From NCBI GenBank assembly GCA_021202555.1, contig JAJQCT010000023.1, positions 10,865-74,864 on the forward strand: a stretch of 64,000 nucleotides of DNA. The letters run 5' to 3'. The notes under the pieces were generated by a model. The model searched no databases. It saw only the letters and a list, made by a program, of their open reading frames with translations, and had not been told where the DNA came from. A program made the translations under genes and the position numbers. Below are positions 32,846 to 62,005 of this stretch, piece after piece (the first letter of the stretch is position 1; each line of letters starts with the position of its first letter). The stretch comes from Clostridiales bacterium. GTDB lineage: Bacteria; Bacillota; Clostridia; Oscillospirales; CAG-272.

Positions 32846-33889
32846 TCATACGCGCCGAATCGTGTGATTCGCCGCACGGATGAGCCTGTTGTAAATAGCG
32901 GGGGAAAGCCCCTCAACGCCTCTTTGCGGTGCGTATGAGTAAATCACATCAACTCGCCTCGTCTCGCCAATCGCATCTGCTTCGCGAAGTGCAGCGAAAA
33001 GCCTTCTCGCGTGAGATTTCGCGTCGTCCCTGCCGCCGATTGAAATTCCGCACTCGGGAAATTCCGAAACGTCCTCGTCGTAGCAGATGAAAAGGCAGCT
33101 TTCACCAGATGACAGCCTGTCTTTCACATATGCTTTCACCCTTTGTGCCTCGCCGTCAAGCAGAACAAGCGGGGATTTTGGCGCGTAATGCTTGTATTTC
33201 ATACCGGGCGAAAGCGGTATTTCGCCCTCAGAAAGCCCCTCCGCGAATGTCACCTCGGAGCATACAGTCAAAAGCTCGTCGCGGCTCACGCCTCCGGGTC
33301 TTAAAATTTTGAGCGAATCCTCGCCCGAGAGCAGCACGACCGTCGATTCAAGCCCAACGTCGCACTCGCCGCCGTCAATAATCGCCGAAACCCGCCCCAT
33401 CATGTCGTCGGTACAGTGTGAAAATCTTGTCGGAGACGGCTTGCCCGAAAGATTCGCGGACGGCGCGGCAACGGGAACTCCCGACAGCTCTATAAATCTG
33501 TGAGCCGTCGGATGCACGGGACATCTTATCCCGACGGTATTCCCTCCCGCCGTAACCTCATCTGGGATTATTTCGCGTTTTTTTAATATTATCGTTATGG
33601 GACCCGGCACAAAAGCGTCCGCCAGTCTCCGATACAGCTTTGTCGTATATGCGATTTTTTCGGCATCCTCTGGGTACGCGATATGCACAATCAAGGGATT
33701 GTCGTGCGGTCGCCCCTTCGCCTCGAATACGTCATAAGCCGCGCGGGCATCGAGCGCCGACGCTCCAAGCCCGTACACCGTTTCCGTCGGAAAAATCACA
33801 AGCTCGCCCGAGCGGAGCATGGAAGCCGCCGCCCGAAGTCCGTCGTCATCCCCCACGGGGACGAGAAGAGTTTTTTTGTCAAAAGTCAC
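32846..33889 (-). CDS. tsaC: L-threonylcarbamoyladenylate synthase (Sua5/YwlC type)
   Basis: 347-aa ORF with the 'FPTETVYGLGA' YrdC domain and a C-terminal Sua5 domain. It overlaps the prfA stop. Confidence 0.85.
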   Translation of the reverse strand: MTFDKKTLLVPVGDDDGLRAAASMLRSGELVIFPTETVYGLGASALDARAAYDVFEAKGRPHDNPLIVHIAYPEDAEKIAYTTKLYRRLADAFVPGPITIILKKREIIPDEVTAGGNTVGIRCPVHPTAHRFIELSGVPVAAPSANLSGKPSPTRFSHCTDDMMGRVSAIIDGGECDVGLESTVVLLSGEDSLKILRPGGVSRDELLTVCSEVTFAEGLSEGEIPLSPGMKYKHYAPKSPLVLLDGEAQRVKAYVKDRLSSGESCLFICYDEDVSEFPECGISIGGRDDAKSHARRLFAALREADAIGETRRVDVIYSYAPQRGVEGLSPAIYNRLIRAANHTIRRV

Positions 33890-34965: not shown

Positions 34966-34994
34966 TGCCTCTTGCCGCCTTTTGTCAAAATCGA

Positions 34995-36407
34995 TTACTT
35001 GTTGAACGCTTTATGTGCGAGATATGCCTCGTAAAGGTCAACCTTTGAAATTATCTCAAACGGCGCGTGCATTGAAAGCACTGGAACGCCGAGATCTATC
35101 GTGTCTATGTTTTCTTTTGATATGTACATTGCAACGGTTCCTCCGCCGCCCTGATCAACCTTTCCAAGCTCGGCAGTCTGCCAGACCACACCCGCGTCGT
35201 CAAATATTCGGCGCACCTTGTAAACAGTCTCGGCGGAAGCGTCGTTTGAGCCGCCCTTTCCGCGGCTTCCCGTGAATTTGACGAGAGTGACGCCGCAGCC
35301 GCAAAGAGCGCTGTTCATACGCTCATATACCTCAGCGTAAAGCGGATCATGTCCCGCCGCAACGTCTGCGGAGAGGCAGAGAGAATGAATGCGCACAAGC
35401 GTTTCGTTCGCACCAAGGCACTTTGAAATTTCGGAAATCACGTCGGTGAGATTGCTCGACTGCATTCCCGTGTTGCCCTCACTGCCGATTTCCTCCTTGT
35501 CGGCGAATATGCACATAACGGTCTTTTCGGGGTTTTCAGCCTCAGCTGTCGCCATCAGAATCGGATATGAGCATACTCTGTCATCGTGTCCGTAGCCGCC
35601 AATCATCGCGCGGTCAAGACCTATATCGCGTGTTTTGCCTGCGGGAACTACGCAAAGCTCCGAGGAAACAAGGTCATTTTCCGTCACGCCGTATTTGTCG
35701 TTCATATATTTCATCACCGCGAGCTTTACCCTGTCGTCAGGCTCGTTCGTCTTGTAAGGGTCGTCGGGCGTTGAATACGGACGCGATCCGACAAGCACAT
35801 TAAGTCCCTCGCCCGAAAAAGCGGAATCAAGGGGTCTTCCCGCCTGATCCTTCGCGAGATGCGGCAGAAGATCCGTGATACAGAATACAGGGTCGCCCTC
35901 CTCATCGCCGATTCTCACGTCTACGGATTCACCGTCCTTTTTGACTATTGTTCCGTGAAGAGCAAGCGGAATCGTCGTCCACTGGTACTTGCGGATTCCG
36001 CCGTAGTAATGCGTCTTGAGATAACCGAATCCGGTATCCTCATAAAGCGAATGCTGCTTTAAGTCAATTCTGGGCGAATCAACGTGCGCCGCGGATATGC
36101 GGATTCCGCACTCAAGCGGCTCGCTGCCGATTACAAACGCGATAAGGCTCTTGCCGCGGTTGTTGTAGTAGTATTTTCCGCCGACGGACACTTTGTCACC
36201 AAGATGATACTCCGAAAAGCCGTGAGATTTCAGAATCTCCACGCCCGCCTTTACGGCTTCGCGCTCCGTCTTTGAGCTGTCGAGAAATTTTTTGTAGCCT
36301 TCGGCAAAATCATACGCCGCGTTTATTTCCTCCTCACTCCTGACCTCATAAACGCTTTTCTTTGAATAAAAAAGCTGTTCCTTCATTTCCTTTGTCTTTT
36401 CAGACAT
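34995..36407 (-). CDS. M18-family aminopeptidase
   Basis: The start is set at MSEKTKE (ATG 36407, GGAGG 8 nt upstream). Motifs: 'SAAHVDSP', 'GHDDRV', 'FADKEEIGSEG'. Confidence 0.8.
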   Translation of the reverse strand: MSEKTKEMKEQLFYSKKSVYEVRSEEEINAAYDFAEGYKKFLDSSKTEREAVKAGVEILKSHGFSEYHLGDKVSVGGKYYYNNRGKSLIAFVIGSEPLECGIRISAAHVDSPRIDLKQHSLYEDTGFGYLKTHYYGGIRKYQWTTIPLALHGTIVKKDGESVDVRIGDEEGDPVFCITDLLPHLAKDQAGRPLDSAFSGEGLNVLVGSRPYSTPDDPYKTNEPDDRVKLAVMKYMNDKYGVTENDLVSSELCVVPAGKTRDIGLDRAMIGGYGHDDRVCSYPILMATAEAENPEKTVMCIFADKEEIGSEGNTGMQSSNLTDVISEISKCLGANETLVRIHSLCLSADVAAGHDPLYAEVYERMNSALCGCGVTLVKFTGSRGKGGSNDASAETVYKVRRIFDDAGVVWQTAELGKVDQGGGGTVAMYISKENIDTIDLGVPVLSMHAPFEIISKVDLYEAYLAHKAFNK

Positions 36408-36445
36408 AATTGCATCCTCCAATATATAATGTTGAAATTTTAAAA

Positions 36446-37012
36446 TCAATAGTATAGCTTCTCGTACATTTCCGCCGCCGCTTCAAGCTTTTCGACAGTC
36501 TCCCTCGTCTCGTCGTACGGAATATACGTCACATTCACGCCGTCGGTCGAGTAATTTCCGTCCGAGAGCCACGAATCAACCATATCCGTGCCGACAATAT
36601 ACGCGGCGTATACGGTTCCCCATCTTTCGTAAAGTCCGTAGAGGTATGAAAGATAGTATGTGCCGTATTTTATATTCGTCTCGGGGTCATAGAGCATTCC
36701 CGTTTCATGCTCCTCGCCCGTAAGGTCGTTCAGCATCTCAAATGTTTCGGGCAAAAGCTGCATCAGTCCTATCGCACCCGAGCTTGAAAGCAGGCTGCTG
36801 TCAAAATTACTCTCCGTTTTGATTACCGCGTAAACTATATATTCGGGTACGCCGTAAAGCTCCGAATATTCGCTGACGTAAGCGGAATATTCCTGCGGGT
36901 AGTTTTTCTCGTCAAGAAGCGTCAGACCTTTTTCGATAAGAAATCCCAGTCCTATCGACAGCGAAAGTATCAGAATAACGACGACGCTCCGCAGAATCGT
37001 TTTCTTGAACAT
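36446..37012 (-). CDS. Lytic transglycosylase (SLT domain) protein, membrane-anchored
   Basis: 188-aa ORF with a TM anchor and 'AVIKTESNFDSS...GAIGLMQL' (catalytic E-S motif). Confidence 0.75.
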   Translation of the reverse strand: MFKKTILRSVVVILILSLSIGLGFLIEKGLTLLDEKNYPQEYSAYVSEYSELYGVPEYIVYAVIKTESNFDSSLLSSSGAIGLMQLLPETFEMLNDLTGEEHETGMLYDPETNIKYGTYYLSYLYGLYERWGTVYAAYIVGTDMVDSWLSDGNYSTDGVNVTYIPYDETRETVEKLEAAAEMYEKLYY

Positions 37013-37027
37013 ATATTACACCGTTTA

Positions 37028-37618
37028 TTATGCCGTAATTTTCTCGTAAATTGCTTTTACATGACTGTAAAGCTCGTCTGTTCCGCCGTCGTTTTCGATG
37101 ACGTAATCCGAAAGCTCTCGAAGCCTGTCCTCGTCCGTCTGCGACATGAGCCGCTCGCGAGCAGCCGCCTCGTCGATACCGTCGCGGCTCATAATGCGCG
37201 GAACATAGTATTTGTCGGACGCAATAACCGAAATTTTATAGTCGCAGAGCGCATCAAATCCCGATTCAAAGAGAAGCGGAGCATCGACGACCGCCGCGCG
37301 GTAGCCGAGCCGTTCATACTTTTTAAGCCGCGTTTCCGTTTCCGCACGTATATATTTATGCGTTATTTTGTCAAGGTCGCAAAGCGCACTTTCATCCGAA
37401 AACACAATAGCTGACAGCTTTTTTCTGTCAAGCGTTCCGTCCGGGTAGAGTACGTCGCCGAAGCGGGCAGTAATTTCAGAAAGGCAATCCGACCCGGGGA
37501 CGCAAAGCTCGCGATAAATTTTATCGGTGTCGATAACTGCCGCGCCAAGGCGCTCCATCATCTCCGAAACTGTTGATTTTCCAGCGCCGCTTTTTCCGCA
37601 AAGTCCGATTACAGTCAA
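37028..37618 (-). CDS. coaE: Dephospho-CoA kinase
   Basis: 196-aa ORF with P-loop 'GLCGKSGAGKST' and 'VVDAPLLFESG'. Confidence 0.85.
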   Translation of the reverse strand: MTVIGLCGKSGAGKSTVSEMMERLGAAVIDTDKIYRELCVPGSDCLSEITARFGDVLYPDGTLDRKKLSAIVFSDESALCDLDKITHKYIRAETETRLKKYERLGYRAAVVDAPLLFESGFDALCDYKISVIASDKYYVPRIMSRDGIDEAAARERLMSQTDEDRLRELSDYVIENDGGTDELYSHVKAIYEKITA

Positions 37619-37763
37619 AATTATTTCCTCCGTCCACGCAGCAACCCGCCCGAATTTTATACACTTTTACTTTATCATATTTCTCGTTGAAAGTCAAGCG
37701 CATTATGTTAATTTGTCAGAAATAATGGCATGGATTTATCTACAAATATTTCAAAGGGCAAAA

Positions 37764-37807
37764 TTATTCCCCGAAAAGCGAAGACGTGCCTCGCTTTCGG
37801 GGAATAA
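37764..37807 (-). terminator. Terminator hairpin downstream of araA
   Basis: TTATTCCCCGAAAAGCGA-loop-TCGCTTTCGGGGAATAA (one bulge), 14 nt after the araA stop, with an A/T-rich 3' flank. Confidence 0.6.
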
Positions 37808-37820
37808 AGGTATCGAAAAA

Positions 37821-39317
37821 TTATTTGTAGTAAACCTCGCCGATCATGAGATCGCGCTTGAGGCTTCCCATCGTCGTGCCCTCGCCGATTACGACGGATT
37901 CGATTCCGAAGTGGTCGCAAAGGTCAACAACGTCGCTTGAGGTGAGGTCATATGTGAACGCGGTATGATGCGCGCCGCCGCACATGAGCCAGCCCTCGGT
38001 ACCCGTCTCAAAATCAGGCTTCGGTGCCCAAAGCGCTGTCGCAACAGGAAGCTTCGGCATGGGCGTAACCTGCTTTTTCACGGCAACCTCATTTATAATC
38101 ATGCGGAAGCGCGTTCCGAGATCAACAAGCGAGCAGGCAACGCCATCGCCCTCTTTTGCCGTAAACACAAGGCGTGCGGGGTCTTCCCTGTTGCCCATTG
38201 AAAGCGGGCAGACGCGAATCGCGGGCTTCGCCTCTGCGATAGACGGGCAGACCTCAAGCATATGCGACTGCAAAATCGCCTTGTTGCCCGGCTCGAGATG
38301 GTATGTATAGTCCTCCATGAAGGACGTTCCCTTTTTCCCTGTCTTTCCGGCGGTCATGAGCTTGAAAAGACGCACGACACCGGCAGTTTTCCAGTCACCC
38401 TCGGCTCCGAAGCCGTAGCCGTCAGCCATCATTCTCTGCATCGCAAGTCCCGGAAGCTGGTTAAGTCCCGCAAGGCTCTGGAAATTCGTGACGACAGCCT
38501 GATACCTGTTCTCCTCGCAGAATTTGCGGAATCCGATTTCGATTTTCGCCTGCTCAGCTACATGGCGGCGGAATTCGTCGGCGTCGCGCCCGTCGGTGAT
38601 GAGGTCGTATGTATCATAGTATTCGTCTGTCAGCGCGTTTATATCGCCAAGTGCGACATCATTTACATATTCGGCAACGTCCGTGATGCAGTAAGCATCA
38701 ACCTCCCAGCCGAATTTCTGCTCAGCCTCAACCTTGTCGCCTTCGGTTACAGCGACATCGCGCATATTGTCGCCAACGCGAACAATGCGCAGATAGCGCG
38801 ATTCAAGCGCTCCGATGGCGACGTTCATCCAATCGGCAATTCTCTTCTGAACATTCGGGTCGCTCCAGTGTCCCGAAACGATTTTGCGCGGCGTTTTCAT
38901 GCGCGTGAGCATATGCGCAAATTCGCGGTCGCCGTGAGCCGACTGATTCTCGTTCATGAAGTCCATGTCGATGGTATCGAACGGAATGTCGCGGTTAAAC
39001 TGCGTATGAAGGTGCAGAAGCGGCTTTCTGTACTCGTTGAATCCGCGTATCCACATCTTAGCCGGCGAGAACGTGTGCATCCAGACGATGCAGCCCGCAA
39101 CGTCGGGGTCTGCGTTTGCGGCGGCAAGCGTTTCGCGAATCGATACGCTGTCGATGAGCGTGGGCTTCCACACAAGCTCATATCCGAGCGCACCCGACGC
39201 ATTGAGCGCGTCAACGATTTTGTGAGAATGCTCCGCAACCACCTTCAGGCAAGCGTCGCCGTAAAGATCCTGAGAGCCGGTAAGAAACCAGAACTTGTAC
39301 TGTTTTGTTGTCAGCAT
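37821..39317 (-). CDS. araA: L-arabinose isomerase
   Basis: 498-aa ORF with 'FWFLTGSQDLYG', 'HTFSPAKMW' and 'GAEGDWKTA'. Confidence 0.9.
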   Translation of the reverse strand: MLTTKQYKFWFLTGSQDLYGDACLKVVAEHSHKIVDALNASGALGYELVWKPTLIDSVSIRETLAAANADPDVAGCIVWMHTFSPAKMWIRGFNEYRKPLLHLHTQFNRDIPFDTIDMDFMNENQSAHGDREFAHMLTRMKTPRKIVSGHWSDPNVQKRIADWMNVAIGALESRYLRIVRVGDNMRDVAVTEGDKVEAEQKFGWEVDAYCITDVAEYVNDVALGDINALTDEYYDTYDLITDGRDADEFRRHVAEQAKIEIGFRKFCEENRYQAVVTNFQSLAGLNQLPGLAMQRMMADGYGFGAEGDWKTAGVVRLFKLMTAGKTGKKGTSFMEDYTYHLEPGNKAILQSHMLEVCPSIAEAKPAIRVCPLSMGNREDPARLVFTAKEGDGVACSLVDLGTRFRMIINEVAVKKQVTPMPKLPVATALWAPKPDFETGTEGWLMCGGAHHTAFTYDLTSSDVVDLCDHFGIESVVIGEGTTMGSLKRDLMIGEVYYK

Positions 39318-39378
39318 AATAGCCTCCGATAAATATTATATTTTTTTGCCGAGCCGTCGTTCGCGCCCCGGCATTGAA

Positions 39379-40044
39379 TCAGATTTTCGCGTCCGCGGAG
39401 CGTCTTGCTTCCATTTGCTCCGCAACCATAATGTCTTTGATTTTCATGAGCCGCGTCGTGTTTCCGCGCTCGTTTTCGTCAAGCTTCATCGAAATTGAGC
39501 GAATCGAGCTTTCAATATCGGGAATCATGATGCTTTCAAGCGCGTTTACACGCCGGCGCGTTTTTTCGATTTCATCCGCCAGAAGCTCGGCGGATTTTTC
39601 AAGCTCCGCCAGCTTTATAAGATCCGCCGTCATCCCGGAAAGCGATTCAACGGCGAAATCAAGCTCGCCAGACGTAAAGGCAAAGCCGTAGCCGCACCCG
39701 TCGGTACGGTGACTTTCATCATACGAGAAGCTCGGAACAGAAACGCTCATGAGATTTTTTTCGGAAACCGATAAAGTCCCCTCGGATTTCGGCAGGAGAA
39801 GCGCCTCGGTGAGCATTTTTCCGTTCATCGCGGCTGCCGCGACGGCGAAATTCGCCTGTACGTTCGCATATCTCACCTCAAGGGACGCGCGAAGCTCCTT
39901 TTCTTCGCGCACAACGTCGAGAAAAAGCTTCATCAGCTCGTCGCGCTTATCCTTCAGCAGCTTATGTCCGTGACGCGCCGTGGCAAGCCTGCCCTTGAGC
40001 TTTTTCAGCTCCATTCGCGTCGGATTTACATTTACGGTCGGCAT
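39379..40044 (-). CDS. ntpD: V-type ATP synthase subunit D
   Basis: 221-aa ORF with 'NPTRMELKKLKGRLATARHGHKLLKDKRDEL'. It is the last gene of the V-ATPase operon. Confidence 0.85.
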   Translation of the reverse strand: MPTVNVNPTRMELKKLKGRLATARHGHKLLKDKRDELMKLFLDVVREEKELRASLEVRYANVQANFAVAAAAMNGKMLTEALLLPKSEGTLSVSEKNLMSVSVPSFSYDESHRTDGCGYGFAFTSGELDFAVESLSGMTADLIKLAELEKSAELLADEIEKTRRRVNALESIMIPDIESSIRSISMKLDENERGNTTRLMKIKDIMVAEQMEARRSADAKI

Positions 40045-40063
40045 ATCGTTTTCCCTTTACCCG

Positions 40064-41458
40064 TTATTCATTCTCGTCTGTCGGCGCTGTTTTGTCCCAA
40101 TACTTTTCGAGTATCGCGGGCTTTATTCGCTTCATCTCCGATTTCGGGAGAATGTGCAGAAGCCTCCAGCCGAGGTCGAGCGTTTCCTCAATCGTTCTGT
40201 CCTCATAAAAGCCCTGATTGATGTATTCCGCCTCAAACGCATCGGAGAATTTGGCGTAAAGCCTTTCAATCGGCGTGAGCGCGGCTTCGCCGAGGACAAC
40301 CATAAGCTCCTTTGCCTCTTTTCCTCTCGCGTAAGCGGAAAAGAGCTGATTCATTGTGCCCGAATGGTCATCGCGCGTGCGTCCTGCGCCTATTCCCTTA
40401 TCCTTAAGACGTGAAAGCGACGGAAGAACGTCAACGGGCGGCAGATAGCCCTTGCGGTAGATTTCGCGCGAGAGTATAATCTGCCCCTCCGTTATATATC
40501 CCGTAAGGTCGGGAATCGGGTGCGTTTTGTCGTCCTCAGGCATTGTGAGAATCGGTATCATCGTAATCGAGCCGTTGCTTCCCTCACGACGTCCCGCGCG
40601 CTCATACATTGTGGCAAGGTCGGTGTAAAGATAGCCGGGGTAACCGCGGCGACCGGGAACCTCCTTGCGCGCGGCGGAAACCTCACGAAGCGCCTCTGCG
40701 TAATTCGTTATATCCGTCATGATGACAAGAACGTGCATTCCCTTATCAAACGCGAGGTATTCGGCGGCGGTAAGCGCCATACGCGGAGTTGAAATTCTCT
40801 CAACGGCAGCGTCGGACGCAAGATTGATGAAAAGCACTGTTCTGTCTATGGCGCCCGTCTTGTTGAAATCACTTATGAAGAAGTCAGCCTCCTCAAAGGT
40901 AATTCCGATTGCGGCAAAAACGACAGCGAATTTGTCGTCTGTTCCGCGCACCTTCGCCTGACGGGCAATCTGCGCCGCAAGATTTGCGTGAGGCAGACCG
41001 GACCCCGAGAAAATTGGCAGCTTCTGACCGCGCACAAGCGTGTTGAGTCCATCAATTGAAGAAACTCCCGTTTGTATAAACTCAGAAGGATATTTTCTTG
41101 CCGAGGGATTCATCGGCGTTCCGTTGATGTCGCGCACCGCCTCGGGAATGAGCTTTGCGCCGCCGTCAATAGGCTCGCCCATTCCGTTGAACACTCGTCC
41201 GAGCATTCCTTCCGAAACGGGAAGCTCGACGCCGTGTCCCGTGAAACGCACCTTTGAATACTCAAGATTAAGACCCGCCGAAGATTAAAAAAGCTTGACA
41301 AGCACGTCAGAGCATTTCTCATCAAGCAGACGGCAGCGTCTCACCTCACCGCTCGGCAAAATAATCTCGCCAAGCTCGTCATATTTTATGCCGTCAACAT
41401 TCTTGACAAGCATAAGAGGACCCGCAACCTCCTCGATTGTTCTGTATTCACGGCTCAC
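40064..41458 (-). pseudogene. ntpB: V-type ATP synthase subunit B, reading frame interrupted by an in-frame TAA (41285-41287)
   Basis: A GTG at 41458 overlaps the ntpA stop (GTGA) and opens '[23 protein letters not shown]...VLVKLF', 57 codons. A TAA follows, then the same frame continues '[34 protein letters not shown]...' to 40064. The stop sits where B subunits carry the conserved Glu of 'FEGTSG' (GAA to TAA, one substitution). Confidence 0.7.
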
Positions 41459-43245
41459 TGCTCATCACCTCCGATTCGGGAAAGCTGTTCGTTGATTTCC
41501 TGTCTTATCTTTTCAAATTCAGCCTTGTATTTCGCCGTCGGAATGCTCTTTGCGCGTCCGATTTTCTCACGCACCGGAAGCTCGGCGATTTTTTCAATAT
41601 CAGCACCCGCTTCAATCGCGCGCTGCGCCTCGTCGCGGAAATAAAGTATCAGTGACAGAAGATCATGCTGCTTTTCGGGCGGGCAATACGAATCATCGTC
41701 TGACATCGCGTCCTGCTGGAGGAAATCCTCGCGAACGGACTGTGCTGCCTCAAGCAGCAGCCTGTCTGACGGCGAAAGCGCGTCCATACCTACGAGCTTG
41801 ACAATTTCCTCAAGCTCCGCCTCCTTTGAGAGGATTCGCATAGCCTCCGTTATCTGCTCCATCCAGTCTGACGCAATATTTGTCTCGAACCAAGGCGCCA
41901 GTCTGTCCTTATAAAGCGAGTAGGAATTGAGCCAGTTTATCGCCGGGAAATGACGGCGGTTCGCGAGTGACGCGTCAAGCCCCCAGAATACCTTTACTAT
42001 TCGAAGCGTCGCCTGCGACACAGGCTCCGATATATCGCCGCCCGGAGGCGACACGGCGCCGACAGCCGTAAGCGCTCCCGTGCGCTCCTCACCGTCGCCG
42101 CATATGCAGCGCACCATTCCCGCGCGCTCGTAAAACTGCGCGAGGCGCGAGGAAAGATATGCGGGATAGCCCTCTTCGCCCGGCATTTCCTCAAGGCGTC
42201 CCGACATTTCGCGAAGTGCCTCAGCCCAGCGCGAGGTCGAATCTGCGATAACAGCCACGGAGCAGCCCATATCGCGGAAATATTCCGCTATTGTTATTCC
42301 TGTGTATACGGATGCCTCACGCGCCGCAACGGGCATATCGGAGGTATTCGCTATAAGCACCGTGCGCTTGAGAAGCGACGCGCCCGTTTTCGGGTCTGTG
42401 ATTTCGGGAAATTCAAGCAGAACGTCTGTCATTTCGTTTCCGCGCTCGCCGCACCCGATGTAAATTACAAAATCTGCGTCAGCCCACTTGGCGAGCTGAT
42501 GCTGAACGACCGTTTTTCCGGAGCCGAAGGGTCCCGGTATGCAGGCAGTTCCGCCCTTTGCAACGGGAAACATCGAATCGATATTTCTCTGACCCGTTAT
42601 AAGCGGCTCGTTGGGAGGAAGCTTTTCCTTATAAGGACGCGCACGGCGTACAGGCCACTTCTGCATGAGCGTTATAGTCTCCGTCGTGCCGTCATCAAGC
42701 GTGAGATTTCCAACGGGATCGGTCACGGTGTAATAGCCCGAGAAAAGATCCGCAATAACACCGCTCTTGCCGGGAGGCACCATTATTTTGAGCTTTACGA
42801 CCTCGTTTTCGCGGACATATCCGTAAACATCGCCCCCTGTAACGCGGTCGCCTTTCTTCGCGGACGCCTCAAAATACCACTTTTTATCGCGGTCAAGCGC
42901 CGGAATATCGATTCCGCGCGTTATGTTCGGTCCGACAGCGTTTTTAATTGCGACAAGCGGACGCTGGATTCCGTCATATATGTTTTCGATAAGCCCGGGA
43001 CCAAGCTCGACAGAAAGCGGCGCGCCCGTCGATACGACTGTATCGCCGCGTCCAAGCCCCGCCGTCTCCTCGTATACCTGAATCGAGGCGCGGTCGCCGT
43101 GCATTTCAATAATCTCTCCGATAAGATGGCGTTCGCCGATTCTCACGACGTCGTACATATTCGCCTCTCTCATTCCCTCGGCGATTACAAGCGGTCCCGA
43201 AACTTTAATTATTCTTCCTTCAGTCATTCCATAAAACCATAGCAT
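41455..43245 (-). CDS. ntpA: V-type ATP synthase subunit A (catalytic)
   Basis: Walker A 'GPFGSGKT', plus '[10 protein letters not shown]' and '[27 protein letters not shown]'. The true start is probably the ATG at 43227 ([14 protein letters not shown]). Confidence 0.9.
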
Positions 43246-43299
43246 TCGCCAAGCGAAAGCTCCCTTTCAATCCTTTCATTCGGAATCGGTACGATATTT

Positions 43300-43650
43300 T
43301 CAGTTATCGCGGAAAAGTATATCCGCGCCGACAGCCTTTTCAACGTGCGATTTCAGCTTTTTCATTCCGAAGCTCATTTTGCCGTCCGCGGCAGCCTCGG
43401 GCAGCGATGTAATCGCAGGAAGCGTTCTTGATGTGTAATGAGCAATATCATCCGCGAGCAGCGTGGCGTATTTTTCCGTGATAAAAACAATTGCGTATCT
43501 GTCGGCGCTCTCGTCGCCCTCGCCCTGCTTTACGAGATTTTTCAAAACAGCTCTCGCCTCATCCGCCGACGAAACATCAAAAACGCCGTAACCGAGCGCT
43601 ATAAAGCCCGAAACGTCTGCTCTGTCGCCTATAACGCCTATCTTATACAT
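43300..43650 (-). CDS. V-type ATP synthase subunit F
   Basis: 116-aa ORF with 'MYKIGVIGDRADVSGFIALG' and 'YAIVFITEKYA'. It sits between the C and A subunit genes. Confidence 0.75.
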   Translation of the reverse strand: MYKIGVIGDRADVSGFIALGYGVFDVSSADEARAVLKNLVKQGEGDESADRYAIVFITEKYATLLADDIAHYTSRTLPAITSLPEAAADGKMSFGMKKLKSHVEKAVGADILFRDN

Positions 43651-44689
43651 ATGAAATGCGCATCCTTTCCCTTATGGCGTCCTCCGTCATGCCCGAGCGC
43701 TTGCCCGCAAGGATGATGCGCGCGTTTTTTGCGCACGACTCCATGCCGACAATATAAGCAAACGGAACGCCGATTCCGTAAAGCGTATCCTCGACACCCG
43801 CTGACACAAGCCTCAGAAACTCGTTTTCCGCCATGCGCTCGAGTGTTGACAGCGCCGCGCCCGACGCGAGCATTCCGGATATTTCGGGATAGCTCTCGCC
43901 GACGGCAGAGGCAAGACGATCTTCGTCATTTTCGCCCTCGTTATGGGAGCATACGGCAAGCGTCAGCATATCGCGCGAGACATTTCCGCCCGATGCAAGC
44001 GCCTCGGAAAGTATTCCCTCCGCCGCCGAAAGCTTCATTCTGCGAACTCTTTCGGACGTCAGAATATTGACCATATCAATTTTTACAGCAAGCGCGTTTT
44101 TGATAAATTTGCTTCCCGTTTTTGCGGCTCCCGCCGCCATCGCCTCAAGGCAGGCGCGGTCAATCGGCAAATCAATCTCCTGCGGATCTCCCGTCTTTGC
44201 AAATTCCTCATTCGCTCTTGCGGCGGAAACGGAAAGCCATTCGGGAAGCGCTGAAAAATCGGCGCCCGAAACGGCAGAAATCACAAGGGATTCGGGAACG
44301 CTCCCGCATGAAAACATCATCCCGTCGGGAGAAAGTCCGCGAGCTGAACACTTCATTGCCGTTTTCATGTTGTTCGCGTCGTACTGAAATCTAAGAAAGT
44401 CAAAGAGAGCCGGATCGTCGAGGCACTGCGACACAAGGTCGAATATCTCACCGACCGCGGCGTCGCAGGCATCCTCCGCGCTGTCTTTATGATACGCATC
44501 CTTCAGTATCTGTTCCGCTGCCGCCGCGCTGTCGGCGTCAATCATCCGACCAAGCATAGCCGACGACAAGCCTCTTTCCTCGACCGCATGAAGATAAGAG
44601 GAAACATAGATAAAATCGTCGTCCTTCACCCGGCGGGAGGCGCGGAAGGTATTTGCCTTTTCTTTAATTCCGTCAACCGTTATCTTCAT
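43643..44689 (-). CDS. ntpC: V-type ATP synthase subunit C (eukaryotic d-like)
   Basis: 348-aa helical protein at the canonical operon position (E-C-F-A-B-D). Confidence 0.7.
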   Translation of the reverse strand: MKITVDGIKEKANTFRASRRVKDDDFIYVSSYLHAVEERGLSSAMLGRMIDADSAAAAEQILKDAYHKDSAEDACDAAVGEIFDLVSQCLDDPALFDFLRFQYDANNMKTAMKCSARGLSPDGMMFSCGSVPESLVISAVSGADFSALPEWLSVSAARANEEFAKTGDPQEIDLPIDRACLEAMAAGAAKTGSKFIKNALAVKIDMVNILTSERVRRMKLSAAEGILSEALASGGNVSRDMLTLAVCSHNEGENDEDRLASAVGESYPEISGMLASGAALSTLERMAENEFLRLVSAGVEDTLYGIGVPFAYIVGMESCAKNARIILAGKRSGMTEDAIRERMRISYV

Positions 44690-55782: not shown

Positions 55783-56067
55783 ATATTAAGACCATACGCC
55801 GCAAAATCGAAACAATTTCACTCATGTAAACCGCACCCCGCGCTCGGAACAGGCACACCCGCGGCACATCGGATACACCGCTTAATGCTGCTTGGTTCCC
55901 CACCTGACATGGTTCACGGCTTCCGATTGCGCGGGACCCATTCTTCTACGCGCGGAAATACGGCGCAAGCCGAACAAAAAAGCCCCTCAATTGTGGACAT
56001 AACCCCTGCTTCAGCGGATTTCAGGTACAGGACACCGCTAACTCCCCGGTCTGTATGGTCTTAATAT
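55783..56067 (-). ncRNA. ffs: Signal recognition particle RNA, long Bacillus-type (scRNA)
   Basis: The minus strand reads '..GGGGAGTTAGCGGTGTCCTGTACCTGAAATCCGCTGAAGCAGGG..' (Alu domain) and '..GTGAACCATGTCAGGTGGGGAACCAAGCAGCATTAAGCGG..GATGTGCCGCGGGTGTGCCTG..' (domain IV). Both closely match B. subtilis scRNA as I recall it. A 15-bp terminal helix pairs 55783-55797 with 56053-56067. The position upstream of dnaX matches Bacillus. Confidence 0.9.
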
Positions 56068-56164
56068 GCGGCACAAAGACATCGTGACCTTGATACCGAC
56101 GATAATTATATCACACGGCATTTGAAATTACAAGCGCAAAAGAAAAAATTTTTATATCTCAACA

Positions 56165-56320
56165 GACTTGAGCGGCGAAGCCCAGCTTCGCCGCTCAGTG
56201 TCTTATTCACGGTTCACACCTCACGGTAAAATTCAGCCTGCATGACATTCCGAGACGAATCACAGATTCGCCTCGGAAGTCAGTCGAATATTCCGCATAG
56301 CGGAATATTCGCGGTTCACG
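56165..56320. repeat. Double-hairpin repeat module, older degenerate module and relic ABC gene 3' end
   Basis: Hairpin 1 at 56244-56281 (GACaTTC-CGAGACGAATC-aca-GATTCGCCTCG-GAAGTC). Hairpin 2 at 56286-56310 (GAATATTCCGC-ata-GCGGAATATTC). Tail GCGGTTCACG at 56311-56320. Relic gene end at 56214-56240. Older hairpin at 56169-56197. Confidence 0.8.
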
Positions 56321-58127
56321 ATTCACGGTAAAACTCCGCCTGTTTGTCGAACATCTCTGTATATATTCCGCCCTTCGCGTAAAGCTCCGAGTGTGTGCCG
56401 TATTCGATTATGTTCCCGTCGTGGAACACCGCTATATTCTCGGCAAGCTTTACCGCTGACATTCTGTGCGTCACAAGCACGGCTCCGCGATTCGTTATCA
56501 TCTCATCGAATCGCTTATATATTTCGTACTCGGCAAACGGGTCAAGCGCCGCTGTAGGCTCATCAAGAAGATATATCGGCGCGTCGTGATATATTGCCCT
56601 CGCTATCGCAATTTTCTGTCCCTCACCTCCCGACGGCTCAAACCCTTCGGGATCTACGCTCTTTCCCACATATGTATCGACTCCCTTTGCTGACTTTGCG
56701 GCAAGATTATCAATATCCGCTTTCCTCAGCGCCTCCTTGAGTTTTTCCCTATCGCACTCCTCTTCAAAGGTTATGTTTTGCGATAGCGGAAGGGTATATA
56801 AACAGAAATCCTGCAGTACTGGCGCAAAGAGCTTTTGATATTTTTCCGGGTCAAATTCCCTGATATTCACGCCGTCAAGCGTTATCTCCCCCTCAGTGGG
56901 AAGGTATAATCTTGTCAAAAGCTTTATGAATGTCGTTTTCCCGGATCCGTTTTCGCCCACAATAGAGAGTTTTTTGTTTGCCTCAAGCTTTATGCTCAAA
57001 TGGCGAAGCGCGTATCTGTCGCTGCCCGGATATTTGAAGGACACATCGTGAAATTCTATCACAGAATCCTCTCTGTACTCGGGCACTCTCTCCCCACTGT
57101 TTTCTTTGGATGTCGCATTTGACCTGAATTTCATCAATTCCTCAATATCAAGAGTGTACGATGTTATTTCAAGATAAACATTGAAAATGGAGCTTAGGGT
57201 CCCCGAAAACTGTCCCGCTGCTGAAATGAATATTGTCATAGATCCTACAGCGAGTGTTCCCGCAATGACCTTCACTACGGCAACCGCATAAAGAAATGCT
57301 GTCTGCAAAGCTGATGTGACGGTATGAACTGTCCGCCATTTTCCGTCAATGCGCATATTTTCCCGGAACAGGTCATTTCTTTCTCTCGCAACCTTTGCAT
57401 AGCACTCTATGAAAAAGTCCTTGGTACCGAAAATGCGCGTTTCCTTGCCGTTCTTTGATGAGGAGGCGTTGCTTGCCGCCACCTGACACCTTTGCTCGAT
57501 TCGCCATTGCTTCATTTCATATCCGTGATTTATTTCATTCAGCTTTTTCGTTACCCAGCTGTTTATCGCAATCGCGGCAATCAGTAAGGCAATAACGGAC
57601 GGGTTCATATATATGATTATATATGAAATAGTGAATATGCGAATCACAGCACTGAAAAGTCTCTCTATAAAATCAAGCATCTCAAACGGAGCCTCCGGCG
57701 CGTGCTCACTGAACATCATCGTAAACATGGATATATTGGGGTCTTCAAGCGACGCATACTCCATGTCGGCGATATATGACTGAAATTCAGCTTGGAATAT
57801 CCTGCGCAGCTCACGTTCAAGCCGTGAACACTTTATACGCAATGTCATCTCCTTCAAATGATTGAACAGCGGAATCGATGCCAAGACTGCCGCATATACT
57901 GCTGCGGTTTTGTATCCGATTTCATCATAAAGGGAGTTGATAATGAGTCCCGGAATGATTGTGTAAAGGAGTGATATAACCGCATCAACAGCGGTGATAG
58001 TCGTTTTCAAAATTAAATAAGCACAGCCTTTTCCTCTCTTCAGCCCGAAAAAGCCCAAAAGATAGCGTATGCAGTTTTTGTTCCTTTTCATATCAGTCCA
58101 AAATGATAAATCTTTAATGTTTTTCAT
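56316..58127 (-). CDS. ABC exporter, fused permease/ATP-binding protein (type I exporter half-transporter)
   Basis: 603-aa ORF with a 6-TM N-terminal domain, Walker A 'GENGSGKT', signature 'SGGEGQKIAIARA', Walker B 'IYLLDEPT' and H-loop 'VTHR'. Confidence 0.85.
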   Translation of the reverse strand: MKNIKDLSFWTDMKRNKNCIRYLLGFFGLKRGKGCAYLILKTTITAVDAVISLLYTIIPGLIINSLYDEIGYKTAAVYAAVLASIPLFNHLKEMTLRIKCSRLERELRRIFQAEFQSYIADMEYASLEDPNISMFTMMFSEHAPEAPFEMLDFIERLFSAVIRIFTISYIIIYMNPSVIALLIAAIAINSWVTKKLNEINHGYEMKQWRIEQRCQVAASNASSSKNGKETRIFGTKDFFIECYAKVARERNDLFRENMRIDGKWRTVHTVTSALQTAFLYAVAVVKVIAGTLAVGSMTIFISAAGQFSGTLSSIFNVYLEITSYTLDIEELMKFRSNATSKENSGERVPEYREDSVIEFHDVSFKYPGSDRYALRHLSIKLEANKKLSIVGENGSGKTTFIKLLTRLYLPTEGEITLDGVNIREFDPEKYQKLFAPVLQDFCLYTLPLSQNITFEEECDREKLKEALRKADIDNLAAKSAKGVDTYVGKSVDPEGFEPSGGEGQKIAIARAIYHDAPIYLLDEPTAALDPFAEYEIYKRFDEMITNRGAVLVTHRMSAVKLAENIAVFHDGNIIEYGTHSELYAKGGIYTEMFDKQAEFYRES

Positions 58128-58136
58128 CTTCTGCCC

Positions 58137-59945
58137 TCACGCCTCACGGTAAAATTCGGCTTGTTTGTCGAACATCTCTGTATATATTCCGCCCTTCGCG
58201 TAAAGCTCCGAGTGTGTGCCGTATTCGATTATGTTCCCGTCGTGGAACACCGCTATATTCTCGGCAAGCTTTACCGCTGACATTCTGTGCGTCACAAGCA
58301 CGGCTCCGCGATTCGTTATCATCTCATCGAATCGCTTATATATTTCGTACTCGGCAAACGGGTCAAGCGCGGCTGTAGGCTCATCAAGCAGATATATCGG
58401 CGCATCGTGATATATCGCTCTTGCTATCGCGATTTTCTGTCCCTCGCCTCCCGACGGCTCAAAGCCTTCGGGATCTACGCTCTTTCCCACATATGTATCG
58501 ACTCCCTTTGTCAATTCACAAAGCAGCTTTTCAAGTCCCGCTCTGTCAAGGGCATCTTCAAGCCTCTCCCTGTCAAAATCATCTTCTACAGCGGTATTAA
58601 GCGCTATCGGCAGCGAATCATACAAATTGTAATCCTGAAATACGGGCGCAAAGAGCCTTTGATATTTTTCCGGGTCGAATTCCCTGATATTCACGCCGTC
58701 AAGCGTTATCTCCCCCTCAGTGGGAAGGTATAATCTTGTCAAAAGCTTTATGAATGTCGTTTTTCCGGATCCGTTTTCGCCAACAATACAGAGCTTTTTG
58801 TTCGCTTCAAGCTTTATGCTCAAATGGCGAAGCGCGTATCTGTCGCTGCCCGGATATTTAAATGACACATCGTGAAATTCTATAACCGAATCGTCTCTGT
58901 ACTCAGGCACTCTGTCGCCGCTGTTTTCTTTGGACGTTTTGCCGTGACAAAAGCTCTCGATTTCCTCCACTCTCACCGAATAAGCCGAAATCTCAAGGTA
59001 TGAGTTGAATATCGAGCTGACAGTGCCGGAAAACTGCCCCGCTGCTGATATGAATATCGTCATTGATCCTACGGCGAGCGTGCCTTTTATGACACCGTAT
59101 ATTGCTGTGGCATATAGCGCGGCTTCCTGCAAAGCGCTTGTCAGGGCGTGTACCGTCTTAAGTCTTACGCTCGCTTTTTCGTTTCCGAGGGCAAGCTCGT
59201 CTATCTTTTCGCCTATCTTCATGTATCTTTTGATGAAGAAATCCTTAGTTCTGAAAAGCCTCATTTCCATCCCATACTCTTCATCGTTCAAATTGGCGTT
59301 TTCAGTCCAGAATATATTATCGAGCTTTCTGTTTTCAAGCTCATATTCGCGCCGCAAAGCGTCGATTTTCTTTGTCACCCATGCGTTCACAAAAATAATG
59401 CCCAAGAGCAGAATTACGACCGCAGGATTCAGGTATGCGATTATTGTAGACAGCGCCAGAACTTTTGTAAAGGAATTGATAAGGCTTGTCACATGGTCAA
59501 GCATCGTAAAGGGGATTTCGGGACCGCTTGAATTTATCTCCTTCACCATGGCGGACGCCGCCGGATCCTCTAAAAGCGCATACTCCAAATCCATTGTGTA
59601 TGACTGATATTTCATCTGAAACGAAAGTCTCAAATCCAGCCTTATGTTGTCCGATGCTCTGCGCAGCGTATAGTCCTTGACGTGATTTATAAGCGGCACG
59701 GCGGCAAGCAGCGCAACATAGATAATTACATTCCGCTCCGCGCCGTCAACGAGTGAATTTATGATAAGTCCGGGGATAACAGTATACGCAAGCGAAACAA
59801 GTGCATCGAGCAGCGCCAGCAAGACTCTTAAAAAGATGTAAAGTCCTCCTGTCCTGCTCGACGCGAAAAATCCCGCCGCGTATTTAATCGATGATACGCA
59901 TCGTCTCGCGTTCGCAAATCGCTTTTTTTGTGTTTTTGTCTTCAT
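58137..59945 (-). CDS. ABC exporter, fused permease/ATP-binding protein (paralog with near-identical ATPase domain)
   Basis: The start is set at MKTKTQKK (ATG 59945, GGAGG upstream). The architecture matches the downstream gene. Only 9 nt separate it from the downstream gene's start. Confidence 0.85.
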   Translation of the reverse strand: MKTKTQKKRFANARRCVSSIKYAAGFFASSRTGGLYIFLRVLLALLDALVSLAYTVIPGLIINSLVDGAERNVIIYVALLAAVPLINHVKDYTLRRASDNIRLDLRLSFQMKYQSYTMDLEYALLEDPAASAMVKEINSSGPEIPFTMLDHVTSLINSFTKVLALSTIIAYLNPAVVILLLGIIFVNAWVTKKIDALRREYELENRKLDNIFWTENANLNDEEYGMEMRLFRTKDFFIKRYMKIGEKIDELALGNEKASVRLKTVHALTSALQEAALYATAIYGVIKGTLAVGSMTIFISAAGQFSGTVSSIFNSYLEISAYSVRVEEIESFCHGKTSKENSGDRVPEYRDDSVIEFHDVSFKYPGSDRYALRHLSIKLEANKKLCIVGENGSGKTTFIKLLTRLYLPTEGEITLDGVNIREFDPEKYQRLFAPVFQDYNLYDSLPIALNTAVEDDFDRERLEDALDRAGLEKLLCELTKGVDTYVGKSVDPEGFEPSGGEGQKIAIARAIYHDAPIYLLDEPTAALDPFAEYEIYKRFDEMITNRGAVLVTHRMSAVKLAENIAVFHDGNIIEYGTHSELYAKGGIYTEMFDKQAEFYREA

Positions 59946-60013
59946 ATGTGCCTCCATAATATTGGTTTTTACTCGTCGCTTTCCGACGCTGTATCTCTAT
60001 AGAACTTTGCCTG

Positions 60014-60092
60014 CATGACATTCATTAACGAATCACAGATTCGTTAATGAAGTCGTCGAATATTCCGCATAGCGGAATATTCAAGGTTCACG
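60014..60092. repeat. Double-hairpin repeat module at the 3' end of the third ABC gene
   Basis: CATGACATTC, then hairpin 1 (60017-60054, core ATTAACGAATC-aca-GATTCGTTAAT), then hairpin 2 (60058-60082, GAATATTCCGC-ata-GCGGAATATTC), then the tail AAGGTTCACG, which contains the gene's stop codon. Confidence 0.8.
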
Positions 60093-61884
60093 TCTCTCTA
60101 TAAAACTCTGCTTGTTTGTCAAACATATCACGGTATATTCCGCCCTTTGCGTAAAGCTCCGAGTGTGTGCCGTATTCGGCGACGTGACCGTCATCAAACA
60201 CAGCGACTTTATTCGCAAGCTGTACGGCGGAAAGCCTGTGCGTAATCAGAACGGCGCACTTTCCGTGTATCATTTTATGGAACTGAGCATAGATTTCATA
60301 TTCCGCTCTCGGATCAAGCGCCGCCGTAGGCTCATCCAAGAGGTAAATATCTCCGCCGTGATAAATAGCTCTGGCTATGGCAATGCGCTGCCCCTCACCT
60401 CCCGACGGCTCAAACCCGTCAGGGTCAATAAATTTCCCGATTTTGGTATGCTCCTGCTTCGGAAGCGAGGCGATAAGGTCTGTAAGCCCCACGTCGTCTA
60501 TTGCGGAATGCAGCTTTTCGCTGTCAATGTCGTCGCTAAGACAGATATTATCCTCAACCTCAAAGCTGTATCGGCAAAAGTCCTGAAAAACGGGAGCGAA
60601 AAGACCGATATACTCATAATAATCGAAGGAATAGATGTTTTTGCCGTTGAGCAGGATTTCACCCTCGGTGGGATAGTACATTCTCGTGAGCAGCTTGATG
60701 AATGTAGACTTGCCCGACCCGTTTTCCCCGACAATACAAATGCGCTCATCGCTTCGTATCACAATATTCAGGTGACGAAGCGCATAACGGTCACTTCCCG
60801 GATACTTAAAGCTTACATCCTTGAATTTTATAGTGAACTCGCCGCTCAAATCCGGATGCTCGGTTCCGCTGCTTATCTGTCTTTGCGGGATTGAGAAGAA
60901 GTCCGAGATGTCGTTCAGGCTGTATTTCATGCTCGCCAAGGACAAAACGGAGCCTGAAAGTTTATTAAGCGAGCTGCTGAGCTGTTCAACAGATGAGATA
61001 CAAATTGTCATGGTTCCGACCGAAAGAACGCCTCTCAAGACCTGAACTATAAGATAGCAGTACAAAAACACCTGCTGAACAAACTTTCCGACAACGGAAA
61101 TTCCGCTGACCGCGATTGTCTTTCTCTTATATTTCAAATCGTGTCGGTTTGTCTCCTCCTCGTTCTCCATCATATGGTCTATCAAATAGTCCTTGCTTTT
61201 GAACATCCGGATTTCCTTGGCGAACTCGGTTTCCTGCAAAATGTAGATAAATGTATCGCGTATTCTGTTCAGTATGTCGGATTCAAGCTCACTCTCTCTG
61301 CCCTTTTTCACAAGCCACTTTGACGCAAAGAAATTGATGATTGCCACAGCTATTACTATGAGCACCATCCACGCATTGAGCGTAAATACGAGCGTTATGA
61401 CGAGGCAAAACTGAATAATGGCGCCAAGCACACCGCAGTAATTATCAACAACGGAGGGCAGCGCTTCAATGGCGTTCAGCGCACGGAATTTAAGCTGGTC
61501 TACATCCGGCTTTTCCAGCTCTTCAAGGTCAATTTCGGCAATTTTACCGTACATGAGCCTGTTGCTGTTGTTGTTGAATTTTGACAGCACAGTTGTCGTC
61601 AGATATTCAATGGGCTTGTTCACAGCGAAAAGCAAAAGCGGCGAGCCGACAATCGCGGCGGCATAAAATGCAATCCGACTCATGCTCTGCTCTCCCGTCA
61701 GCTCATCAATCAAAAGTCCCGGAAACATGACAAATACAAGCGGGAGCAATGAGTTCAAAACTGAGCTTATGCACCGCAGAATAATATAGAGCTTCCCGTT
61801 TGCCTCACGGCTCCACACGTACTCTAACCCCTGAAACGATGAGTTGATTGTGCGTATGTTTTCCTGAAATAAAGTGTGTTTCAT
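60088..61884 (-). CDS. ABC exporter, fused permease/ATP-binding protein (third paralog)
   Basis: The start is set at MKHTLFQEN (ATG 61884), because a consensus promoter lies inside the longer ORF-track extension. It has the same NBD motifs: 'GENGSGKS', 'SGGEGQRIAIARA', 'IYLLDEPT'. Confidence 0.85.
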   Translation of the reverse strand: MKHTLFQENIRTINSSFQGLEYVWSREANGKLYIILRCISSVLNSLLPLVFVMFPGLLIDELTGEQSMSRIAFYAAAIVGSPLLLFAVNKPIEYLTTTVLSKFNNNSNRLMYGKIAEIDLEELEKPDVDQLKFRALNAIEALPSVVDNYCGVLGAIIQFCLVITLVFTLNAWMVLIVIAVAIINFFASKWLVKKGRESELESDILNRIRDTFIYILQETEFAKEIRMFKSKDYLIDHMMENEEETNRHDLKYKRKTIAVSGISVVGKFVQQVFLYCYLIVQVLRGVLSVGTMTICISSVEQLSSSLNKLSGSVLSLASMKYSLNDISDFFSIPQRQISSGTEHPDLSGEFTIKFKDVSFKYPGSDRYALRHLNIVIRSDERICIVGENGSGKSTFIKLLTRMYYPTEGEILLNGKNIYSFDYYEYIGLFAPVFQDFCRYSFEVEDNICLSDDIDSEKLHSAIDDVGLTDLIASLPKQEHTKIGKFIDPDGFEPSGGEGQRIAIARAIYHGGDIYLLDEPTAALDPRAEYEIYAQFHKMIHGKCAVLITHRLSAVQLANKVAVFDDGHVAEYGTHSELYAKGGIYRDMFDKQAEFYRET

Positions 61885-61927
61885 AGTAATGCACCTGCTT
61901 ATCCCGAAATTTGTCATCAACAAATCC

Positions 61928-61956
61928 ATTATACGGGGCGAAAATGCGTTTGTCAA
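61928..61956 (-). promoter_or_regulatory. Consensus sigma-A promoter of the ABC exporter genes
   Basis: Minus strand: TTGACA (61956-61951), exactly 17 nt, TATAAT (61933-61928). Confidence 0.7.
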
Positions 61957-62005
61957 GGGGTGCAAGTTTCAAATCATTCAACTTCGGGATTTAAGGCTTT
62001 TTCGT

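Follow-up and report, generated by a model that had tools for sequence, protein, structure and literature searches.

Small mobile elements that settle over the 3' ends of genes are a known kind of event in bacteria. QMITE1 and QMITE2 of Coxiella burnetii are palindromic and non-coding, measure 150-400 bp and occur in tens of copies, mostly at gene 3' ends, where they overlap the last codons of functional genes and in places give the C-terminal residues or the stop codon; QMITE2 is accompanied by variable-sequence direct repeats of 7-11 nt (PMC5896051). The bacterial MITEs (transposable elements of the miniature inverted-repeat type) RPE, ERIC, Correia and YPAL are non-autonomous, 100-200 bp long and form strong stem-loops in or at the ends of genes; they show filled and empty sites between relatives, possibly affect the stability of the upstream mRNA, and most of them possess terminal inverted repeats together with short duplications, TA or others (PMC2229807). 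Insertion with direct repeats that are long and vary in length (8-514 bp) has been reported for only two bacterial transposable elements, IS1549 and IS1634 (PMC2266710). Here we describe a two-hairpin element, M, at the ends of ATP-binding cassette (ABC) exporter genes in a 64,000-nt stretch of a Clostridiales genome assembly (GCA_021202555.1, contig JAJQCT010000023.1, positions 10,865 to 74,864; hereafter the window). Together with a duplicated gene end the element forms a cassette that provides the terminus of the gene, and we compare this locus with related genomes and with the systems above.

The 3' end of gene C

Three tandem ABC exporter paralogues, A, B and C, lie on the minus strand of the window; all three match the Pfam family ABC_tran, and A and B also match ABC_membrane. 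Gene C (56316-58127, 603 aa), identified from the open reading frame (ORF) list, Pfam ABC_tran and homologues, terminates with CAG GCG GAG TTT TAC CGT GAA TCG TGA (56342-56316). This live end, X (CAGGCGGAGTTTTACCGTGAATCG, QAEFYRES, 56319-56342), runs on the same strand into element M (56241-56318), which comprises the TGA stop, the tail AACCGCGAATATT, hairpin 2 (HP2, 56285-56311) with perfect 12-nt arms (56285-56296 and 56300-56311), hairpin 1 (HP1, 56248-56278) with 14-nt arms (56248-56261 and 56265-56278) and the end AATGTCATG; the module boundary ..GAATGTCATG spans 56250-56241. Next to it, again on the minus strand (56214-56240), stands an unused second gene end, X' (CAGGCTGAATTTTACCGTGAGGTGTGA, QAEFYREV-TGA), which matches the live end at 22 of 27 positions. 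An earlier reading of this DNA (the original prediction) had listed the live end, the two hairpins, the boundary, this relic and an older tail and hairpin beyond it, and every one of them lies where it had been placed.

A repeat search returned the duplication as a direct repeat of 50 nt with 76% identity and a period of 102 nt. Matches of at least 22/27 within the next 150 nt were found for about 0.1% of 40,000 random window positions, mainly at other true repeats. The 186-nt region folds with -87.1 kcal/mol (z = -7.1 against shuffles), and element M reaches 95.8 bits against the covariance model of its family. Read-through or selenocysteine incorporation at the TGA was ruled out, as more in-frame stops follow within 11-25 codons. 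A consensus scan for intrinsic terminators (GC-rich hairpin plus U-run) on the minus strand found none after gene A and none from gene C to the gene for the signal recognition particle (SRP) RNA, and leaves a terminator role of the hairpins unsupported. The hairpins may act on the ABC mRNA, for example by protecting its 3' end or by uncoupling translation of A and B. Look-ups of exact proteins returned no record for the gene C protein or for P0180.

A further tail, TGAACCGTGAAT, is present at 56216-56205 and belongs to an older element with one hairpin and without HP2 (56161-56216, minus), composed of TGAACCGTGAATA AGACAC, a hairpin with a perfect 13-bp stem (56169-56197) and AAGTCTGT. This unit scores 29.1 bits against the family model, and its stem is homologous to HP1 of the element at L005 (L001 to L026 label loci in relatives; X1-X4 and X25-X27 are public sequencing runs). 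One-hairpin units with the prefix GTGAATAAGACAC also stand 3' of ABC gene ends in L003, L025 and L002 g0. The hairpin at 56169-56197 is a one-hairpin member of the same family as M and an older remnant, much as had been proposed. Strain X1 carries another remnant at this place, half an HP2 with TCCATTA, as does L001, and the site downstream of gene C is therefore a hotspot of hairpin-unit turnover.

Presence and absence of the cassette at ABC gene ends

The layout of gene C is repeated at gene A (60088-61965, minus), the first gene of the cluster, a second copy that the original prediction did not mention. Its live end QAEFYRET-TGA (60114-60088) is cassette-derived and is followed by the module (60014-60090) and a relic native end, 59969-60114 overall. 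Comparison with relatives reveals filled and empty states at both genes. Gene A is filled in the window and empty in L001 g1 (from a genome about 95% identical), L026 and X2/X3, the difference amounting to 101 nt. Gene C is filled in the window and in run X1 and empty in L001 g2 and X2/X3, and a contig of 126 nt skips exactly 102 nt. L003 is filled, with a perfect 25-nt repeat, and L025 g2, which has the same downstream DNA, is empty (101 nt). L002 g1 and L025 g1 are filled as well; in both, the relic is a native end terminated by TAA and borders directly on the ribosome-binding site of the following ABC gene. Close relatives differ in whether they have the cassette, and the unit gained or lost at ABC ends measures 101-102 nt, made up of about 19-24 nt of gene end and 78-83 nt of element. 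An in-frame cassette was rejected as a candidate, since the insert measures 101 nt in gene A, in L002 g1 and in L003, and only at C does it reach 102 nt.

Judged by relatives that end their genes live with such ends (L001 g2, X2/X3), the relic X' is the former end of the recipient gene. The original prediction had read the structure as the footprint of an insertion, and the empty relatives (L001, L026, L025 g2, X2/X3) indeed use the relic as live end and have no module. A relic tail without module in relatives had been counted beforehand as evidence against an insertion; such tails were found, but they represent the empty site and so support it.

Gene C owes its final eight codons and its stop to the cassette, in agreement with the earlier proposal that these come from the proximal copy and the module. 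Nearly all of 240 listed homologues read ...MFDKQA(Q/K/E)FYR(D/E/N) and continue for 2-25 further residues; the abrupt end QAEFYRE-x-stop occurs in 10 of the 240, all of this small clade. The bases round those stops, ..GAR GCG/ACG/TCG/GTG TGA AYC GTG AAT ATT.., match the element 5' end at non-genic copies, which argues that the last one or two codons and the stop are element-derived. At the live end X of gene C, the last one or two codons are probably part of the element 5' end.

As an alternative, gene end and hairpins could have been duplicated locally in tandem, by slippage between short repeats such as ACCGTGA. The 102-nt period at gene C is compatible with such an event, and tandem duplication does occur in the family, namely in an array in a tRNA leader (224-nt period) and at L005 in run X27 (96 nt back); 7-nt GGYGTGA micro-duplications near stop codons point in the same direction. 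However, the second unit at C is of a different subtype, without HP2, no second module follows the relic in gene A, L002 g1 or L025 g1, and the relic of gene A is a native long tail, the same as in its orthologue. The evidence at hand already largely refutes this explanation, which we regard as very improbable. The repeated tandem duplication that the original prediction had offered as one option is not supported, for these reasons and for the four different downstream contexts in which the cassette is found with identical junctions (left GAYAAR|CARGC, right GTCATG|CAGGC).

Tandem micro-duplications of GGYGTGA or GTGAAY were noted at ABC stop codons (L024 580-600 compared with L002 4010-4025; window 56205-56225). 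One example reads GAGGCGTGAGGTGTGAATATT against GAGGTGTGAATATT in the orthologue and changes which TGA serves as the stop.

A filled and an empty site outside the ABC genes

At L005 a copy that is not associated with an ABC gene lies between two copies of TATATCATAAA. The opposite strand of this repeat, TTTATGATATA, resembles an extended -10 box and is located upstream of a gene like those for short-chain dehydrogenases (L005 440-555). Contigs of related strains in runs X25 and X26 skip exactly 96 nt of L005 with an ambiguity of 11 nt at the joint; they therefore represent the empty site of an 85-nt element with a perfect 11-bp target duplication. The element family is mobile and makes a target duplication, and the other flank-duplicated copy that the original prediction had called for is present here, with 11 bp. 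The ends set by this empty site, TTAAGCGCTGCA.. (TTAAGCGCTGCACCGTGAATATT...) and ..CTCAATGTTAT, were compared by eye; they are not complementary and form no terminal inverted repeats. Across 24601-44600, a 20-kb part of the window, comparison with contigs of relatives gave no additional polymorphic insertion.

The insertion at L005 leaves 96 nt between the gene and the distal copy of the -10-like box with its TTGCGA -35 box. In run X27 the L005 form has two tandem copies, with a contig that returns by 96 nt.

Direct repeats that flank an insert restoring a gene end also recall the attachment-site cores of a site-specific recombinase, in which case M would be a miniature integrative element bearing a spare 3' end of the gene; in L003 and L025 the ABC genes do have large serine recombinase genes upstream of them. 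Yet the repeats enclose only 78 nt of hairpin DNA, with neither the cargo nor the recombinase of an integrative element between them, Pfam found no recombinase among the approximately 55 ORFs of the window, and other copies occupy unrelated sites such as the tRNA leader and the promoter box. Moreover, serine recombinases exchange strands within a 2-bp core, which does not fit the repeats described here. We consider this origin extremely improbable.

Copies, subtypes and distribution of the element

The element is a dispersed, non-coding repeat of 78-85 nt with two hairpins. Its conserved 5' end is ..(A)AGCG(C)TGAACCGTGAATATT.. and its 3' end ..AATGTCAT, with the end motifs ..AAGCGCTG.. and ..AATGTCAT; the 5' consensus (A)AGCG(C)TGA was inferred from L005 and other copies. 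Loose-end sequences of other copies share the 5' motif AGCGCT..AACCGTGAATATT, often after ..TCATAA, and four of five left flanks of copies end in ..TCATAA. Five to six copies are located in the window, and related copies were identified in L002, L003, L005, L007 and L025. Copies without HP2 exist (L002 5330 and the tRNA array). In an alignment of seven copies from the window and related metagenome-assembled genomes (MAGs), 99% of cells pair and 10 of 25 pairs are changed on both sides. The covariance model built from this alignment found no further copies in the window. A palindrome at 36865-36891 lies inside an ORF with an SLT domain and does not belong to the family.

Rfam 15 gave no family for the module at either gathering or permissive thresholds; only the SRP RNA and a tRNA reached the gathering score, and matches of the module had E > 2. 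A pattern scan of the GTDB genomes with the HP2 motif yielded two genuine copies only (L005 and L007) among chance palindromes; the corresponding scan of JGI metagenomes gave 15 matches, all of them chance palindromes, and viral contigs gave none. On the pattern scans and the Rfam result, the family is rare in public collections and confined to one small clade of gut-type Clostridia that is poorly sampled.

Two HP2 subtypes can be distinguished. Contig depth of the major, GCGC-type HP2 is about 15-100x the flanking baseline in related runs, from which we roughly estimate tens of copies per genome, bearing in mind that metagenome depth can mix genomes. The CCGC-type HP2 of the copies at ABC ends is a subtype of its own with low copy number (depth about 1-3x baseline). 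Such a private, low-copy subtype is expected if these copies travel with the gene ends and not by repeated transposition.

Three or four elements with GCGC-type HP2, all in the same orientation, form an array at 24030-24400 (minus strand), between a promoter-like site and a tRNA gene (23955-24028). The promoter-like site, TTTACA-17-TAAAAT, is located at about 24470-24442, which would place the array in the leader transcript of the tRNA. Close strains differ here by entire units, with 79 nt gone in X1 and 228 nt in X2/X3.

Gene conversion in the ABC cluster

Along the gene, A is about 96-97% identical to its counterpart in L001 (divergence about 3-4%). The 25 nt just before the cassette show 8 mismatches to L001 (GIYRDMFDK vs GIYTEMFDK), and the live end differs from the relic at 5 of 24 positions, with two amino-acid changes among them. 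These foreign 49 nt agree closely with the paralogue type of L002 g0 (0/25 and 2/24 mismatches). Contigs of X2/X3 contain an empty gene A allele with the 25 nt of the L001 type. The relic itself is native: CAGGCAAAGTTCTATAGAGATACAGCGTCGGAAAGCGACGAGTAA (QAKFYRDTASESDE-TAA, 59969-60013, minus), followed by the ribosome-binding site and the start of gene B, shares its first 27 nt with the live end of the L001 orthologue, and L026 has the same native end. Foreign 25 nt, a foreign live end and a native relic together mean that the repeat at A is therefore not a fresh target duplication. The sequence comparison indicates that the cassette of gene A was imported by gene conversion from a cassette-bearing paralogue, with the flanking sequence co-converted; the imported tract (60014-60139, minus) comprises about 25 nt of paralogue-type coding sequence (IYRDMFDK), the gene end X (60091-60114), the TGA and M (60014-60090). 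Within a single MAG (GCA_021202035.1), L025 g1 could act as donor and L026, which is of the A type and empty, as recipient.

Conversion is also evident between genes B and C. Their membrane halves are 47-60% identical in DNA sequence and their 3' ATPase halves 94-100%, and the identity breaks off precisely at GACAAACA, where the duplicated gene-end segment has its first base; gene conversion in the cluster is therefore recent and active. The closest relative, L001, has only two genes at this locus: A, and a second one that is B-like and is followed by a downstream region of the C type. Gene B (58137-59957, minus) is module-free, and its stop context GAGGCGTGAGG keeps the first approximately 11 nt of the element 5' end. 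The gene ends GAG GCG TGA GG|GCAGAAGATG (58130-58145, minus), and the 11 nt round this stop match the element 5' end AGGCGTGAGGTGTGAATA in L003, L024 and L002 g0. On this similarity the B-C junction appears to cut through an old element.

The observations at gene A also bear on the possibility that the element inserted independently and site-specifically each time, with cuts 19-24 bp apart, every relic being a true long target-site duplication. The identical junctions at five sites in four downstream contexts would be accounted for in this way, as would the local codon usage that live end and relic have in common at C and the identity of the two at L003; in addition, TTTTATAGAG of the gene resembles the ..TCATAA flank of other copies. 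This explanation does not fit gene A, with 5/24 differences between live end and relic and foreign DNA over 25 nt upstream, nor the private low-copy HP2 subtype shared by the ABC copies, nor the 11 bp of duplication measured elsewhere, and we judge it distinctly improbable. Of the insertion with an unusually long target duplication that had been suggested originally, the insertion stands; the duplication does not hold at gene A, where it is not fresh and the live copy and 25 nt upstream are foreign.

Origin and spread of the cassette

We consider it probable, with moderate confidence, that the element inserted into an ABC gene end and that the resulting cassette then spread by gene conversion among paralogues. 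The element would have inserted in the last codons of an ABC exporter gene, right after ..TTT TAT AGR G, so that the gene came to take its last one or two codons (Glu-Ala/Thr/Ser/Val) and its TGA stop from the 5' end of the element. The original end would have been displaced and kept downstream as an untranslated relic and would form, with the upstream copy, the direct repeat of about 19-24 nt. Later the cassette of 101-102 nt would have been copied to other ABC paralogues by homologous gene conversion, with homology given on the left by the near-identical DNA of the nucleotide-binding domain and on the right by the gene end of the recipient itself. The recipient end at gene C would already have borne the older one-hairpin element, and that at gene A would have been native and long-tailed. 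The first long duplication would be a target duplication; its rival origin is a one-off illegitimate junction in paralogue-templated repair.

This rival origin can be extended to the whole history of the cassette, with recombination as the only process: an end with the element just past its stop would have served as the template for break repair in a paralogue, with a left junction made through homology of the nucleotide-binding domain and a right one, GTCATG|CAGGC, made once by illegitimate or microhomology joining. Later spread would be due solely to templated gene conversion, and the flanking repeat would never have been a target-site duplication. Relic-free ends with the element in L001 g2, L002 g0, L002 g2, L024 and L025 g2 agree with this scenario, and so do the one exact right junction common to all five filled sites, the co-conversion at gene A, the active conversion of B and C and the family's target duplication, measured at no more than 11 bp. 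On the other hand, an illegitimate joining, itself unobserved, would have to fall precisely on the homologous codon, insertion with a flanking duplication is documented for the family elsewhere (L005), and the repeat at L003 is perfect over 25 nt. We therefore regard a purely recombinational origin as rather unlikely, though as the most serious competitor to insertion followed by conversion.

Several observations weigh against insertion followed by conversion. The sole measured target duplication is 11 bp, compared with about 19-24 nt for the ABC repeat, and one mechanism would therefore have to give duplications of variable length. With about 24 nt the right homology arm is short, and at about 80% identity it is imperfect as well. 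Live end and relic share codon choices within a locus (TACCGTGA at C, the perfect 25 nt at L003), which could reflect independent local duplications instead. Pfam searches found no gene for a transposase, a reverse transcriptase or a REP-associated transposase (REP, repetitive extragenic palindrome) among the approximately 55 window ORFs, all of which are ordinary chromosomal or housekeeping genes. Finally, the only RNA run found, the bat gut metatranscriptome X4, covers the SRP RNA part only, although very deeply, and not the module.

A bolder reading, which we hold to be unlikely, is that the family represents a new kind of non-autonomous element that moves without terminal inverted repeats, makes long target duplications of variable length (11 bp at the promoter box, about 19-24 bp at the ABC ends), leaves 5'-truncated copies (the units without HP2) and carries a portable 'Glu-Ala-stop' terminus. 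By analogy, this combination would recall insertion by target priming or by replication template switching and no known bacterial cut-and-paste transposase. If the insertion mechanism itself makes long variable duplications, this would point to an undescribed mode of mobility in uncultured gut Clostridia.

Neighbouring features

Located 3' of the ABC genes are a large SRP RNA gene (55792-56058, RF01854, 177 bits), dnaX, ybaB and recR. For the SRP RNA gene, a promoter with a TG-extended -10 box, TTGTAA-17-TATAAT (56133-56105), was noted immediately downstream of the element cluster (55792-56133, minus, for promoter and gene). Among the related loci, the A-type ABC gene of GCA_021202035.1 (L026 2440-2490) is split by an in-frame TAG into 531 and 67 aa, which is either a pseudogene or an assembly error. 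The cassette-bearing ABC genes of L003 (403-2562) and L025 (304-2461) are found directly 3' of a large serine recombinase gene and a small sigma-70-r4/helix-turn-helix gene, and these copies may sit at the edge of an integrated mobile element. Elsewhere in the window, the V-type ATPase operon (40064-43245, minus) contains a B-subunit-like ORF of only 395 aa and an unassigned gap of about 200 nt (41252-41454) between it and the A-subunit ORF.

Comparison with known systems

The locus illustrates in detail that a very small, selfish element made of hairpins can give a conserved transporter gene a new C-terminus and a new stop codon while the gene survives, and that the rewritten gene end can spread through a paralogous family by gene conversion, with the old end left behind as a datable relic. 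For annotation, it accounts for the abrupt QAEFYRE-x ends in a small clade of ABC exporters, compared with the longer tails in hundreds of relatives.

Regarding described elements, the QMITEs are similar in being small, non-coding, palindromic and mobile, in having tens of copies and in their position over gene 3' ends. They differ in having terminal inverted repeats, and in QMITE2 a GTAG REP, whereas the present element, of about 80-85 nt, has neither and consists of two independent hairpins; its ABC copies are moreover flanked by a duplication of about 19-24 nt that contains a whole spare gene end. With the RPE, ERIC, Correia and YPAL elements it shares strong stem-loops at gene ends and filled and empty sites between relatives, but none of these has been described with a replacement gene end that spreads among paralogues (PMC2229807). 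Like a classical MITE the element is small, non-coding and multi-copy, and filled and empty sites demonstrate its target duplication; terminal inverted repeats matching an autonomous insertion sequence are absent, and no partner insertion sequence was found in the window.

REP sequences and bacterial interspersed mosaic elements (BIMEs) are likewise short palindromes of high copy number, often located just past stop codons and co-transcribed, and form strain-variable mosaic arrays (PMC2817692). A REP, however, is a single palindrome of 20-40 nt with a GTAG-type 5' tetranucleotide, alternates in orientation within a BIME and makes no target duplication (PMC2817692). The present element, in contrast, combines two different hairpins with conserved linear tails, lacks GTAG, forms co-oriented arrays and makes an 11-bp duplication. 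No gene of the RAYT type (REP-associated tyrosine transposase, an IS200/IS605-like Y1 transposase) was found within the 64-kb window. Elements descended from IS200/IS605 have subterminal hairpins and no terminal inverted repeats and insert on the 3' side of a fixed target (4-5 nt) without duplicating it. Such a descent would be in keeping with the hairpins, the absence of inverted repeats and the ..TCATAA at four of five left flanks, but not with the perfect 11-bp duplication. With its target duplication, two hairpins and no terminal inverted repeats, the element is therefore not a classical MITE, not a REP or BIME and not IS200/IS605-derived. A long direct repeat at the insertion site is reminiscent of IS1549 and IS1634, but these are autonomous elements of 1.5-2 kb with DDE transposases and terminal inverted repeats, and no link between them and the present element was found.

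The spread among the ABC genes resembles a different process. Introns and inteins home by recombination into the corresponding site of alleles or paralogues that lack them, and donor sequence next to the insert is co-converted. The 25 nt co-converted at gene A are similar, but no endonuclease, ribozyme or splicing is involved here, and the insert is tolerated because it supplies its own stop codon. The element is best filed among the small non-autonomous hairpin elements, from which it stands out by the long duplication, a portable spare gene end of about 19-24 nt, and by its homing-like spread.

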